Origin: Candidatus Bathyarchaeota archaeon
Lineage (GTDB): Archaea > Thermoproteota > Bathyarchaeia > Bathyarchaeales > Bathycorpusculaceae
Direction of reading: 5' to 3'
NCBI GenBank assembly: GCA_963811105.1
Contig: CAWEPZ010000011.1
Location: forward strand, 288,001 to 352,000
Length of the DNA: 64,000 bases
The notes under the pieces were generated by a model that was given only the letters and a program-made list of their open reading frames with translations, ran no database searches and was not told where the DNA came from. This document shows positions 23,922 to 50,253 of the stretch, one piece after another; the stretch's first letter is position 1, and every line of letters starts with the position of its first letter. A program made the translations under genes and the position numbers.

Positions 23922-24346
23922 TTATGCTGGGTAGAAAACTCCAGTCATATAGATGTAGTACAAATCGGCAGGATGCCAGGCCTGCACAAGGCTCCCAATG
24001 GCAAAGAAACTGTAGCCATTTCCTGCAGTTACAGGAACTACTGCTTGTACAGACATAGGCCAATAAGTTGTTGTTTCATCTCCGATTGGTCCAGCAAATG
24101 TGTAAGAAAGGTTGGGATAAGCATTACTTGTCGTCCCAAGACCTAAACCTGCAATCGTGGAATCTCCACTCAGATCAGCCATAGCATTAACACTGAGTAC
24201 AACATAACCATTTGATGGCGCGGTTAAGGTCACGTTGGCAACAGTTTTGTAATCTGTGGATAGACTAATAAAACTATGAGCATAAGTGTCGTTATACATA
24301 ACTACGACGCCTGATGATCCAGTTGGTCCTGCTGGTCCTCGCGGTC
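23922..24346 (-). CDS. C-terminal half of a collagen-like surface protein interrupted by the integrative element
   Basis: Starts with PRGPAGPTG, then a beta-rich domain; joins in frame with 50253..49715. Confidence 0.88.
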
Positions 24347-24380
24347 TCACTGTTCCAGACTCTAAGAAGTACTGTTTTTT
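24337..24380. repeat. attL: 10-bp core + left inverted arm
   Basis: CCTCGCGGTC overlapping the arm GGTCTCACTGTTCCAGACTCTAAGAAGTACTGTTTTTT. Confidence 0.88.
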
Positions 24381-24463
24381 CCCATCTTTTTCTATGTTCT
24401 TTCAAAGCAAAGTTAGATTATTTTTATAGTTTAAAGTTTTTTGTGTTTTGTGGAGGCCTCTAG

Positions 24464-24733
24464 TTGCCTAGGGCTGGCTCTAAGCGCTACGGTGCAGCCC
24501 AGTTACTAGAGGAGTCCGTCTGTGAGTGTGGGTGTGAGTGTGAGTGTGTGGAGACGTTTTGCTGCCAAAGACGCCGCGACGTCACGCTTGATTTGTCTTT
24601 AGGGGAGAGGCCTTTGGGCAGTGTTGTTTCTGGGGTTCCGGTGTCTTGCAGTTGTCAGGTGGGCTGCAGCAAGGGCATCTTTTGTCTCTTGAAGGCTAAG
24701 CGTATTACTACGGGCAGGAGAGTGAGACGTTGA
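24464..24733 (+). CDS. Cys-rich hypothetical protein (element backbone)
   Basis: 89-aa ORF overlapping the next gene by 4 nt; the CECGCECEC tract comes from GAGTGT microrepeats, so it may be spurious. Confidence 0.35.
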   Translation: MPRAGSKRYGAAQLLEESVCECGCECECVETFCCQRRRDVTLDLSLGERPLGSVVSGVPVSCSCQVGCSKGIFCLLKAKRITTGRRVRR

Positions 24734-24966
24734 AGCAGATCTGTCTCTATGTTCCCAGGTTCTACATCGAGCTTCTTGATGAGGCAGTTGATTTGGGGTT
24801 TTATCCGAATAGAGCTGAGGCGATTCGGCTGGCCATCCGAGGGTTACTCTCTTCGCATGGCAAGTTTAGTGTGCATACGGATTATGAGCCGCCTGAAAAA
24901 ACTGTGTTGTTAGCGGTTGAGAAGCAGCTGGATGATATTGATGAGCGGAGGGCGGCTTTGTGGTGA
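24730..24966 (+). CDS. ribbon-helix-helix (CopG-like) protein
   Basis: QICLYVP..IELLDEAV..G.YPNRAEAIRLAIR. Confidence 0.85.
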   Translation: MKQICLYVPRFYIELLDEAVDLGFYPNRAEAIRLAIRGLLSSHGKFSVHTDYEPPEKTVLLAVEKQLDDIDERRAALW

Positions 24967-25117
24967 ATCATCCTAAACGAAAGCTGGCTCCCGAGTGGGA
25001 GATTCATCTAAGCGAAAACTGTACAGTGACGCCGATGCAAATGGGCAGGACTCGCAGTGAGAAGTGCAGGCAAAGGCGACTTGAGGAAGAGGAGAATAAA
25101 AAAATACGGGAGGCTTC

Positions 25118-25327
25118 GTGAGGTTGTTTTTTGGGAAGAGCTATCGGCGTTTCTATGGTGCCCTTTCGCGCTTCGGTGTATATACTGAGTATGAAGGGTC
25201 TGGTAATTCCCTGCAGGAAATCCAGAATAGAAGTCTCTATTTCAATGTTGATTGGGAAAATCTAAAGTTGACTATTTCTTGGCGGTTCTTGCGTTGGTTT
25301 TCTAGGAGGTCCAAAAGTGAAGCTTGA
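25118..25327 (+). CDS. hypothetical protein (element backbone)
   Basis: GGAGG SD; overlaps the PolX start. Confidence 0.5.
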   Translation: MRLFFGKSYRRFYGALSRFGVYTEYEGSGNSLQEIQNRSLYFNVDWENLKLTISWRFLRWFSRRSKSEA

Positions 25328-47439: not shown

Positions 47440-47498
47440 GAATTCGAGACCTAGAGGCAGTTTATTCTCAGGAATTAAGCTTTCTATGGCAACTCATT

Positions 47499-47771
47499 TT
47501 GACCATATCCTGCAGAGGTAAGGTGTTAATGGTTTTTAATGGCTTCCTTAAAGCTCAAGGTTACCTTCAGCTGGAGGATCCGGTCTGGGGTCGCTGCCTA
47601 ATTATTCCTCGAGAAGAATTTACAGGTAAAATGGCGCTGTGTCTTAGAGTTGAAGGCATAAGATACCATTTCACCTGGTTAGATAATTATGGCGCCGTTT
47701 TCGTTGAACTACAGGATCCTTTCTTTTCTGAACCTAAGGTAGAATTGGCGGCCTTGGAGGTTAATTATTAG
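47499..47771 (+). CDS. hypothetical protein (element backbone)
   Basis: Coupled to the next ORF. Confidence 0.5.
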   Translation: MTISCRGKVLMVFNGFLKAQGYLQLEDPVWGRCLIIPREEFTGKMALCLRVEGIRYHFTWLDNYGAVFVELQDPFFSEPKVELAALEVNY

Positions 47772-48238
47772 TGGTTGAAGGGGAGCGAACAGGTGCCCTA
47801 GCCAGCATTACGTCTCTTAGCATGTTTGGCAATCAACCGGTAAACAATATTACTGGCAAGTCGGTTTCAGTTCTACCTGCCGGCGCCGCCTCGCAAATTC
47901 CCATCTATGTAAAATACAAAGATCACGCATTCTTCAAGAATCTCTCCGACCCTGTTGCAGCTCCTGTTATCCGTGAGACCATCGGCTGGGTGAAAGAAGA
48001 AAATGAGGAGCTTTTCCTAATTGAGTTTGACCGTTCTGTTCCAAGAAGAGGCAAAAACGTAAACGGGATCATTATTTTGAAGAATTGCATCATAGAAGCC
48101 TACCCGTTGCCACTACAAAAAAAATCGGAATACCACTTAAATTTAACGAAAACTACGTCTAGGCTTGAGTTGGCGTTCCGGCCATCGGAGCGAAAAACTC
48201 ATGGAGCTAAATTCTCCAGGAAAAACCAGACATGCTAG
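47771..48238 (+). CDS. hypothetical protein coupled to the integrase
   Basis: YVKYKDH..RETIGW..FDRS core; overlaps integrase start. Confidence 0.65.
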   Translation: MVEGERTGALASITSLSMFGNQPVNNITGKSVSVLPAGAASQIPIYVKYKDHAFFKNLSDPVAAPVIRETIGWVKEENEELFLIEFDRSVPRRGKNVNGIIILKNCIIEAYPLPLQKKSEYHLNLTKTTSRLELAFRPSERKTHGAKFSRKNQTC

Positions 48239-49674
48239 AAAGAAAAACTACGTTAAACGCTATAGCCCCGGCTATAATAAGATCCCGTAAATTGAAATTA
48301 GAACAAATAAAGGAACTGAAGCTTCCGCTGATTTTTCGAGACGACCAAGTTATCATCGAAAAAAGCCTAAACGATTATCCACTCAACACCCCATTAAAAC
48401 TAAAGCTTTCTCAAATCTTGGAAACAGGCGAAGTAGGCCTAGTTGACTACATTATCCGTTCTTGCATTAGACAATGCCCAACAATGATCCCATACATCTT
48501 TGAAAACCAAAGCTTACTCAAGATGGTACGACATCTTTTCAGACACGGCTCACCATCACAACAAACCTGCTCATCTTACTCAATTAATGTCAGAAAATAC
48601 GCCAACTGGCAAGGTTATTCGCCAGACGAATTAATCCTAGACATTAAACCCGTTGGAGCAATCTCAGATCCGCAAAGAGTCCTAAACCACTGTGACTTTC
48701 TCGAAAGTTACTTAGCAGATCTCCAAGACTCAGGCCTCAAACCCTCATCCGTAAATAACTGTATCAAAGCAGTCAAAACCTTCTATCGCGAAAACGGCGC
48801 CAAAGTTGAGCTGAAAGATAAACTTAAACGCAAAAAAACCTACAAAGACCGAGCACCTACACCAGACGAATTAGCAAAAGTACTCGACAACGCAGCAACT
48901 CGCGAAGCTTTCATGATCGCAGCCATAGCAACAGGCGGATTCAGAGAAGAAACATTTTCAGTCCTAACATATGGACACGTCAAAGAAGACCTAGAAGCCA
49001 ACAGATTTCCAATACATATTCACGTAGAAGCCGCAATTAGCAAAGGAAAATACCACGACTACGATACGTTCATCAACGTAGAAGCCTGCAAACTTCTGAA
49101 ACAGTATATAGAAGAACGAAAAAAAGGCACACGTAAATTCCCTCCAGAAGAAATAACCGACGAATCACCGCTTATCAGAAACACCAGGTCTGCCAAGAAA
49201 GTAAGAGGAATCAGTGGCAGTGCAGTTGGAGACATAATTCATAAGCTGCTAATTGAAGCAAATGTAGCAAAGAAACTCCACAAAAGTTGGATGTACGACG
49301 TTAGAACTCACAGCTTTCGAAAATATTTCAAAACTCAATTAAGCATCTGCAAAATCAACGACGATATCATCGAATACATGATGGGTCACTCACCCGACAC
49401 TTACGAAGACGTTCAAAGTTTAGGAATAGAAAAACTCAGAAAACTCTACGTTGCAGCAGACCTTTCAATCAGAGCAAAAACAGTTCCTAACAGAATTGAG
49501 CAACTTAAAGAAATCATACGCGGCTGGGGCGAGAATCCCGAAGAAATTCTATGTAAAGACGTACTTCTCCGAGGAAACAGCACTGACGAATCACCTAGTC
49601 AAATCGAAACGCATCAAATGTCACTTTTAGCTGAATCACTCAAGGATCTTGTTAAGCGGGAGGTCTCAAAATAA
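48232..49674 (+). CDS. tyrosine recombinase/integrase
   Basis: Catalytic set R (GGFREE), K (SKGK), HxxR (THSFRKYF), H (MMGH), Y (DTY); ends just inside the right arm. Confidence 0.96.
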   Translation: MLERKTTLNAIAPAIIRSRKLKLEQIKELKLPLIFRDDQVIIEKSLNDYPLNTPLKLKLSQILETGEVGLVDYIIRSCIRQCPTMIPYIFENQSLLKMVRHLFRHGSPSQQTCSSYSINVRKYANWQGYSPDELILDIKPVGAISDPQRVLNHCDFLESYLADLQDSGLKPSSVNNCIKAVKTFYRENGAKVELKDKLKRKKTYKDRAPTPDELAKVLDNAATREAFMIAAIATGGFREETFSVLTYGHVKEDLEANRFPIHIHVEAAISKGKYHDYDTFINVEACKLLKQYIEERKKGTRKFPPEEITDESPLIRNTRSAKKVRGISGSAVGDIIHKLLIEANVAKKLHKSWMYDVRTHSFRKYFKTQLSICKINDDIIEYMMGHSPDTYEDVQSLGIEKLRKLYVAADLSIRAKTVPNRIEQLKEIIRGWGENPEEILCKDVLLRGNSTDESPSQIETHQMSLLAESLKDLVKREVSK

Positions 49675-49678
49675 ACTC

Positions 49679-49724
49679 AAAAAACAGTACTTTCTCAAGT
49701 CTGAACACTCAAGACCTCGCGGTC
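49679..49724. repeat. attR: right inverted arm + 10-bp core
   Basis: AAAAAACAGTACTTTCTCAAGTCTGAACACTCAAGACC overlapping CCTCGCGGTC. Confidence 0.88.
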
Positions 49725-50253
49725 CAGAGGCCCCAGTTGCTCCAGTAGAGCCAGTTGCACCTGTGGCCCCCATTATGCCTTTAATGTTTGTTACCAATAT
49801 CCATGCCCCTAAAGTTTTGTAGTAAACGTCACTATTTATTGTGTTAAGATAGTAGTCGCCGTTGCTGCCTAAGATAGAAGCCGGTATGCCCAAACCACTA
49901 AGCCACGTAGCGCCATTAGCGCCTGCAAGTCCTGTTTCTCCGGTCGCACCACTCAGTCCTGTAGCGCCTGTCGCTCCTGTAGCACCTGTAGCCCCCGTTA
50001 GTCCAGTTGCTCCTGTTGCTCCAGCGGCGCCGGTTTCTCCAGTTGGTCCAGTTAATCCAATTTCACCTCTTGTACCTGTTTCTCCTTTGGGACCTAGCGG
50101 ACCTGTTGGTCCGATGTCTCCTTTTGATCCCACTTCACCTTGTGGTCCAGCAATCCAATGTGTCGTAATCCCTGCTGAAACAACTGCTAACGCAATGCTG
50201 GAAACTAGAAGTATGATAATTAGAAAAGATTTTGATAAAGTGATTTTCTCCAT
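49715..50253 (-). CDS. N-terminal half of the interrupted collagen-like surface protein
   Basis: Signal/TM, G-X-Y repeats, WLSG.G.P..G..GDYYLN motif; breaks at ASGPRG. Confidence 0.9.

Follow-up and report, generated by a model that had tools for sequence, protein, structure and literature searches.

A cryptic integrative element, probably inserted by its own tyrosine integrase, interrupts a collagen-like gene in a Bathyarchaeia genome

The locus and its empty site

The window analysed here, the whole stretch of 64,000 nucleotides, corresponds to positions 288001-352000 of contig C11 (CAWEPZ010000011.1) in a Bathyarchaeia genome of 3.49 Mb and 15 contigs (GCA_963811105.1); coordinates are those of the window unless another contig is named. 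In it, a gene for a collagen-like protein on the minus strand is divided into two halves, and between them lies a 25.4-kb element that carries a tyrosine-recombinase integrase gene. By its translation, the N-terminal half (49715-50253, minus strand) encodes a hydrophobic anchor, GXY repeats, one 'ATWLSG...NIKG' module and more GXY triplets, with GXY runs of 27 and 8 triplets. The C-terminal half (23922-24336, minus strand, an open frame of 137 aa) encodes the last GXY triplets, a head domain of predicted TNF/C1q-like fold and the stop codon; with intact homologues it shares 58-73% identity. In the minus-strand open reading frame (ORF) that begins at 50253, the collagen-like sequence ends right after ...GASGPRG; as it stands, this N-terminal fragment (ORF 49666-50253) runs into 16 codons of the element and then stops, and the C-terminal fragment lacks a frame upstream.

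Both junctions carry the 10-bp core CCTCGCGGTC (plus strand), which is present in two exact copies in the window, attL at 24337-24346 and attR at 49715-49724. The genome as a whole contains three copies, where about 6.7 are expected by chance for any 10-mer, and the third is unrelated to the element. The element body spans 24347-49714, which amounts to 25,368 bp between the cores or 25,378 bp with one core, and has a G+C content of 42-48% as against 37-39% in the left flank. Joining 50253-49715 (539 nt) to 24336-23922 (415 nt) on the minus strand gives 954 nt with an open frame of 317 aa, in which the insertion point falls mid-gene, at about codon 180. The contig contains no Ns, and no tRNA gene was found in the window.

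The central observations of an earlier note on this DNA hold up. The collagen ORF is indeed split at two exact copies of the core, beginning at 24337 and 49715, and its joined halves form the uninterrupted frame that had been proposed, which moreover aligns over its full length with intact homologues. The target is protein-coding and not a tRNA gene, and the integrase is intact, its 480 aa aligning with relatives over residues 1-480. The remark that many nearby genes are decayed is borne out in part: inside the element, the region surveyed for decay, two fragments of IS110-type transposases are found (29796-30230 and 46318-46743).

A 19-nt empty-site motif was scanned against metagenome contigs and matched 12 stretches, 11 of them unrelated GC-rich sequences and one, on the 2297-bp contig L121, a true site. 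The left part of L121 matches window positions 22443-24346 (92.6% over 1908 nt), and its right part continues directly into positions 49715-50121 (94.8% over 407 nt). Both flank matches overlap on a single copy of the core, the element body is absent, and around the junction L121 differs from the computed join by 2 substitutions in 60 nt. Because of this empty site, we conclude that the two flanks belong together, that the 25,378 bp are an insertion and that the reconstruction is exact. L121 is the one syntenic relative known, and it is unoccupied. In its N-terminal half, however, a run of four G residues (within L121:93-167) stands where the window has five (~49950-50030), so that the frame is shifted, and L121 is changed at three positions where all 16 outgroup proteins have Thr. 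The frameshift may be an assembly error or a real defect; the sole known empty allele may itself be defective, or the contig may contain errors.

The interrupted gene

A protein database search with the C-terminal half returned 19 longer homologues (242-389 aa, 43-73% identity). In precomputed annotation, the collagen repeat family PF01391 is assigned to all 19, and the BclA C-terminal family PF18573 to none of them; elsewhere the latter occurs only on unrelated collagen proteins. In a side-by-side comparison the join aligns over its full length with the 19 database homologues and with the corresponding genes of genomes G001 and G012. The common layout consists of a hydrophobic N-terminus, GXY repeats, 0-2 modules, a few GXY triplets and a conserved C-terminal domain of ~125 aa. 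Since the stalk module ('ATWLSG...GDYYLN...NIKG') is present in 0, 1 or 2 copies among family members, the stalk varies by whole modules. The join point falls into the last GXY triplets, where the G012 homologue has the identical string Gly-Pro-Arg-Gly-Pro-Ala-Gly. The att core is not kept in the homologous genes of G001 and G012, which have only the gene itself in common with the window flanks and are not positional orthologues.

Among 119 other genomes of the genus, five intact close homologues were found, in five other species, with open frames of 268-288 aa. Searching with the N-terminal fragment, among proteins of 107-342 aa, gave family matches of at most 57% identity and one match of 71% that spans only 25% of the query; with a maximum of 57%, the protein database holds no second sample of the allele, either split or intact.

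The AlphaFold2 model of the head domain (pLDDT 89.7) is all-beta and has nine strands. A Foldseek comparison with the PDB gave 27 matches at E<=0.001, the top one being the TNF-like lectin PLTL (E 1.9e-5, TM 0.66); BC2L-C N-domain, the exosporium proteins BxpB and ExsFA, and C1q heads are among the further matches. In this model, the head is shown to be a TNF/C1q-like jelly roll. The intact product would most likely be a collagen stalk with a predicted membrane anchor and with a head that would trimerise and possibly bind sugars. A collagen-like surface fibre with a TNF/C1q-like head is represented by the BclA type of the Bacillus exosporium. Like BclA and C1q fibres, the modelled protein has a GXY stalk followed by a C-terminal jelly roll of the trimerising kind; unlike BclA, it gives no match to the BclA C-terminal Pfam family and combines an N-terminal hydrophobic anchor with 0-2 'ATWLSG...NIKG' modules in an archaeal host. 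Collagen helices nucleate from the C-terminal end, according to the available text of PMC11923368, and the truncated N-terminal fragment would be unlikely to assemble. Archaeal collagen-like fibres with a lectin-like TNF/C1q head form a small family of patchy occurrence, to which the interrupted gene belongs; they are candidates for cell-cell or cell-substrate adhesion.

Integrase and attachment sites

The integrase gene (48232-49674, plus strand, 480 aa) reads outwards to attR, and its stop codon lies 40 bp before the right core, as in relatives. The protein matches the Pfam family PF00589 (Phage_integrase) with 30.9 bits (cut-off 27.1, E 2.8e-7) and the PHROGs integrase family phrog_1 with E 8.9e-12. 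In an alignment of 14 sequences the catalytic-type residues R238, K271/K273, H360-x-x-R363, Y391 and Y406 are invariant. The N-terminal region is long (~200 aa), the match to the archaeal XerA model is weak (45 bits, cut-off 220), and no match was obtained among PDB sequences. Integration leaves the integrase gene unsplit, with attP outside the ORF, and the enzyme is a class II (pNOB8/lambda-type) tyrosine integrase. Judged by the XerA score and the PDB sequence search, its family is distinct and uncharacterised.

Just inside the cores lie two inner arms, the left one (P' arm, 24347-24383) ending in GTACTGTTTTTT and the right one (P arm, 49679-49714) containing AAAAAACAGTAC. They form an imperfect inverted repeat, I1, of 49 nt with 71% complementarity, which has AAAAAACAGTAC and GTACTGTTTTTT at its ends; in relatives, the right-arm motif is found at a matching distance from the integrase stop. 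An ORF of 155 aa (47771-48238, plus strand) overlaps the integrase start; tblastn matched it in 101 related loci, where, among the matches listed, it lies immediately upstream of the integrase. No family in Pfam, PHROGs or NCBIfam was found for this partner ORF, and its matches in the Atlas are unnamed Bathyarchaeota clusters only; its AlphaFold2 model (pLDDT 58) is too poor for a fold search. Our guess is that it encodes an accessory or directionality factor.

Relatives of the integrase were drawn from genomes of the host family (201 sampled), from 80 named loci in genome contigs and from 5 loci in IMG/VR. Matches at E<=1e-10 are present in 95 of the 201 genomes, and the relatives in genome contigs come almost all from Bathyarchaeia or Bathyarchaeota metagenome-assembled genomes. 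In these relatives a AAAAACAGTAC-type motif follows the integrase stop, and the att sequence comes ~25 nt further on; an xGTAx motif occurs within the first 35 nt after the stop at 49 of 69 loci. The att position is taken by a whole tRNA gene (Asn, Lys, Pro, Arg or Gln) or by only its last 15-17 nt. A whole tRNA gene stands beside the integrase at 8 of 25 loci scanned and within 200 nt of it at 20 of the 80 named loci, and an 11-mer of a tRNA 3' end (at most 1 mismatch) was found within 110 nt at 51 of 69 loci; among control pieces this held for 4 of 237. GXY runs near the integrase were found at none of the 29 + 80 related loci. As far as these sequences tell, the target in the window is atypical, a protein-coding gene as against the tRNA 3' ends usual for the integrase family.

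At two related loci, L047 (4384-4480) and L063 (the first ~90 nt past the integrase stop), an arm and its inverted counterpart directly enclose a tRNA-end-like core, and at L047 a homologue of the element's 338-aa protein comes next. The same arrangement results for attP when the ends of the window element are joined. At L047 and L063, such a layout is what one expects of an unintegrated attP or a tandem array.

The integrase relatives at 62-64% identity carry tRNA-Pro 3' ends. In outline, the reconstructed attP still resembles the 3' part of a tRNA. Aligned without gaps to the 3'-terminal region (20 nt) of tRNA-Pro(ggg) from the same genome, it agrees at 15 of 20 positions, or at 13 of 20 if a second register is used, and this match is spaced from the GTAC arm motif as is the tRNA-Pro-type att of relatives. 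When attP was compared with the genome's 43 tRNAs, the best local score was 12, which 60 of 200 shuffles reached and which is therefore not significant. The longest run in common measures 4-5 nt with the own tRNA-Pro(ggg) as against 10 nt with the collagen site. A tblastn search of the genome found no related integrase at its own tRNA-Pro.

Other members of the family were seen in passing. A decayed integrase of the same family lies at C2:557948-558941, in two fragments of 44-54% identity between a copy of a ~350-bp genomic repeat and tRNA-Gln(ttg); it looks like what is left of an older element that had integrated at a tRNA. Four loci in other genomes match the last ~65 residues of the integrase only (G142:C18:5-202, G027:C10:214422-214619, G233:C1:159919-160125 and G186:C31:8288-8479), with 64-70% identity in open frames of 68-94 aa, and these isolated C-terminal matches may be element ends left after deletion. 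Five relatives of 40-58% identity were found on predicted viral contigs in IMG/VR (L130-L134). In four of the five the integrase is at the contig end or within a few hundred bases of it, and in L132 it is ~700 bases away from the end, so that the family may include some proviruses.

Age of the insertion

Compared with L121, the two halves in the window show 25 synonymous and 18 non-synonymous changes over 271 codons, which corresponds to a dS of 0.128 and a dN/dS of 0.24. The earlier note had suggested computing dN/dS on both halves and comparing related genomes for intact and occupied alleles. The ratios against L121 are 0.20 for the N-terminal and 0.28 for the C-terminal half, and the comparison revealed intact genes in the five homologues from the genus and the empty allele in L121. 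Polarising the 18 amino-acid differences with the 16 outgroup proteins assigned 6 to the window and 6 to L121 and left 6 ambiguous. The substitutions derived in the window are all at variable positions, and those at invariant Thr residues are all on the L121 side. Because the derived changes number 6 versus 6 and the Thr changes are on the L121 side, the split allele shows no relaxation. Both dN/dS and the derived changes fit a young insertion and a still-used gene equally well, as the time before and the time after the insertion are inseparable in them. In terms of sequence divergence, the insertion appears fairly recent when set against the 5-7% that separate the window from the nearest population known.

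Four of 7 public sequencing runs (7-14% of sampled words each) were compared with window positions 42000-56000. They gave thin contigs of 150-620 nt, mostly 90-95% alike. None of those listed spans 49715-49724, and they show neither a joint nor a loose end at the junction, so that they are uninformative on excision and on coverage of the junction.

Interpretation

With this in mind, we consider it probable that the locus holds a 25.4-kb cryptic integrative element, which was inserted site-specifically by its own class II tyrosine integrase in a fairly recent, gene-disrupting event. The earlier note had left the choice between a recent insertion and a reversible switch. The former is supported by the empty site in L121, the family-type arms and the undamaged halves, and for the latter nothing positive was found.

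Mechanistically, the integrase would bind two inverted core-type sites of attP, and strand exchange would take place within the 10 bp common to attP and the collagen-gene site. The attB core would lie within the stretch coding for Gly-Pro-Arg-Gly-Pro, with its natural dyad symmetry; the collagen site is nearly palindromic because Gly-Pro codons (GGWCC) are self-complementary. Either attP, once of tRNA type, may have acquired a new specificity by drift, or the element may have made a one-off landing at a secondary site. The insertion would part the anchor and stalk from the head, and the gene would be off while the element is present. Since both att sites, the integrase and the partner ORF are intact, a precise excision restoring the gene is mechanistically possible, and the element is probably still excisable. 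Hence, the insertion is reversible in principle, a switch used by the host being a separate matter. Overall, the integrative element is real and well delimited and the disruption of the gene genuine, its mechanism being ordinary and its target unusual.

Several points weigh against the insertion by the element's own integrase as we describe it. The empty site is represented by a single contig, which has a 1-nt frameshift of its own. The halves are without damaging change, and a maintained, still-used gene would look alike. A motif for the circle junction found no match in the viral contig collection, and a contig with the alternative form is absent from the genome's own assembly. Moreover, the genome is metagenome-assembled with a contamination estimate of 4.3%, and the junctions were judged from the assembly alone. 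Finally, the kinship of attP with a tRNA-Pro 3' end is no more than suggestive.

Among the alternatives, the element might excise and re-integrate at a useful rate or on a signal, thereby toggling the collagen-like fibre. In an archaeon, such behaviour would amount to phase variation or 'active lysogeny', and the secreted and anchored proteins encoded by the element would serve as an alternative surface repertoire. The integrase, perhaps with the 155-aa partner as directionality factor, would then toggle fibre-bearing and element-protein-bearing cells in a Bathyarchaeia population. Such a reversible switch is compatible with the possible precise restoration of the gene, with the intact state of integrase, conserved partner ORF and both att sites, and with a cargo rich in surface proteins. 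The split halves retain all family-invariant residues, and the unsplit L121 has the three changes at Thr positions and the frameshift; furthermore, virion and conjugation genes were not detected, as in domesticated bacterial switch elements. However, the pairing of element and gene is not conserved, as all five close homologues from the genus are intact and the only syntenic relative is empty, and the att core is not kept in the homologous genes of G001 and G012. The circle junction was not found in the viral contig collection, and the tRNA-targeting habit of the family points to an atypical landing and not to an evolved partnership. Altogether, we regard the switch as improbable.

Equally doubtful in our view is an accident at a secondary site, in which the true attB would be the 3' end of tRNA-Pro and the collagen site a look-alike that was used once, and excision could be inefficient. 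We set this reading apart from the probable explanation given above, of which it is a sub-case, since it predicts a different recombination behaviour. The match of attP to tRNA-Pro(ggg) at 15 of 20 positions, with family-like spacing from the GTAC motif, and the tRNA-Pro 3' ends at relatives of 62-64% identity speak in its favour. The match is not significant, however, given the 60 of 200 shuffles that reach the top score, and this attP has its better substrate in the collagen site (10 nt versus a run of 4-5 nt); nor is there a related integrase at the genome's own tRNA-Pro.

Far less credible still is a transposon with terminal inverted repeats and a 10-bp target-site duplication, to which the integrase would be unrelated. 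The imperfect terminal inverted repeats and the short direct repeat would suit it, and a single core in the empty site is also compatible with target duplication, yet neither end has a transposase, the one complete gene of this kind being located in a nested 1.7-kb insertion sequence (IS) with inverted repeats of its own, and arms and spacing match related integrases that sit at specific tRNA 3' ends and not at random duplications. We can likewise place next to no weight on a misjoining of a mobile-element contig into the collagen-repeat region of this metagenome-assembled genome: 15 contigs, a contamination estimate of 4.3% and repetitive GXY sequences would allow for it, but both junctions fall on one exact 10-mer, in frame, the flanks are contiguous in the independent contig L121, family-specific arms lie inside both junctions at a family-specific distance from the integrase, and the contig is free of Ns.

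Comparison with known systems

Cryptic integrated elements of Thaumarchaeota, as described in the available text of Krupovic et al. 2019 (PMC6563490), measure 2.6-98 kb and lack viral and conjugative hallmark genes; their att repeats are as short as 8 bp, nested insertion sequences are frequent, and empty sites in relatives served as confirmation (PMC6563490). Among 68 such elements, 39 are in tRNA genes, 15 are intergenic and 14 are in protein-coding genes (PMC6563490). As far as that text goes, the 14 insertions into protein genes are 3'-distal, and in its worked example the element supplies a replacement stop, so that the gene stays whole (PMC6563490). The element in the window resembles these, as they are described there, in its integrase, short att repeats, nested IS, lack of hallmark genes and empty site in a relative. 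It differs from the cases described in its mid-gene position, in that the lost half is not replaced, and in its Bathyarchaeia host.

In the available part of the review PMC8371274, class II archaeal integrases leave their gene intact after integration, with attP outside the gene and mostly tRNA targets; close relatives among them switch between targets (PMC8371274). Compared with the class II integrases covered in that part, the present one stands out by its ~200-aa N-terminal region and the conserved 155-aa partner ORF upstream.

Bacterial genes restored by excision include the systems known as skin/sigK and nifD. In the portion of PMC8987985 that was available, the examples are a prophage in Listeria comK and elements of sporulation and nitrogen fixation. 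As in those described cases, a recombinase-bearing element here splits an ORF, and precise excision would rebuild the gene. For the bacterial switches described, the split allele is standard for the lineage, and excision is coupled to a programme, either developmental or environmental, whereas here the split is seen in one genome. In the open-access literature searched, we found no archaeal switch restored by excision, and the examples in the available part of PMC8987985 are all bacterial.

The locus thus offers a cleanly delimited Bathyarchaeia integrative element, with both att sites, an empty site and an attP architecture that we infer from its ends, in a group that has neither cultures nor genetics. 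The large, uncharacterised integrase family, with its partner ORF and arm motif, helps to find element borders in other Bathyarchaeia genomes, and the atypical mid-gene target would exemplify a route by which integrases that normally target tRNA genes arrive at a protein-coding site. Were excision to be demonstrated, the archaeal use of mobile elements as genetic switches would become directly testable at this locus. Should a switch prove true, it would be the first archaeal gene control by reversible excision of a mobile element, as far as the literature searched shows.

Element content

No virion, terminase or conjugation genes were recognised among the element's proteins with Pfam and, for ten of them, PHROGs. 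In the PHROGs scan of these ten, the integrase alone matched, and nine small ORFs (seven in the left module, 47499-47771 and 47771-48238) did not. With only the integrase matching PHROGs among the ten, a provirus is not supported. By its gene content, the element would fit a cryptic integrated element in the sense of Krupovic et al. (PMC6563490).

A conserved left module (25317-29118, plus strand) encodes, by Pfam, a small Pol-beta-like nucleotidyltransferase and a winged-helix protein, alongside proteins of 338 aa and 192 aa and several small ORFs. The left 5 kb of the element (24.5-29.5 kb) recur on the genome's own contigs with 72-92% nucleotide identity, at C4:6400-11400, C2:411100-414200, C3:37300-42400, C15:29600-32800 and C10:8200-11200; in protein, the copies on C3, C4, C15, C10 and C2 are 75-90% identical. 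The copy on C4 adjoins tRNA-Asn(gtt) and that on C2 tRNA-Arg(tct), and in each case an arm that terminates in a T-run comes next. By tblastn of the genome, the sister copies have no integrase of the window's family beside them, and they may use other integrases or be remnants.

The module is followed by a fragment of an IS110-family transposase (29796-30230, plus strand; 144 aa only; Pfam Transposase_20, E 1.3e-13) and by cargo genes. On the minus strand, positions 30287-34565 encode an 880-aa protein and a 463-aa right-handed beta-helix protein (Pfam Beta_helix, E 1.2e-11); a PEGA match in this region is weak and below the cut-off. The complete nested IS of 1.7 kb (34601-36301, minus strand) has terminal inverted repeats (I5) and a DUF772/DDE_Tnp_1 transposase of 505 aa (34701-36218), and a copy of 91.7% is present on contig C6. 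On the plus strand, a 696-aa FG-GAP repeat protein (Pfam FG-GAP, E 1.1e-8) and a 368-aa protein follow (36604-39818). The FG-GAP protein (36604-38694) has many paralogues of 41-52% identity, clustered at C13:189000-232500, which suggests that repeat-rich surface proteins form a large family in this genome. Further cargo at 41977-45906 comprises secreted or anchored proteins of 401 aa and 364 aa (both minus strand) and a 392-aa Kelch propeller (plus strand; Pfam Kelch_1, E 4.5e-33), their hydrophobic N-terminal leaders and C-terminal anchors having been read by eye from the translations.

By its translation, the region 46318-46743 (minus strand) is a C-terminal fragment of an IS110-family transposase, and it overlaps the ~350-bp genomic repeat. 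This repeat (46646-46990) has at least 25 copies, on C1, C2, C3, C6, C7, C9, C11 and C13. A second repeat of ~880 bp (39911-40795) is present in ~8 copies and contains an ORF of 152 aa that is up to 96% identical between copies; both repeat families may be MITE- or IS-derived elements.

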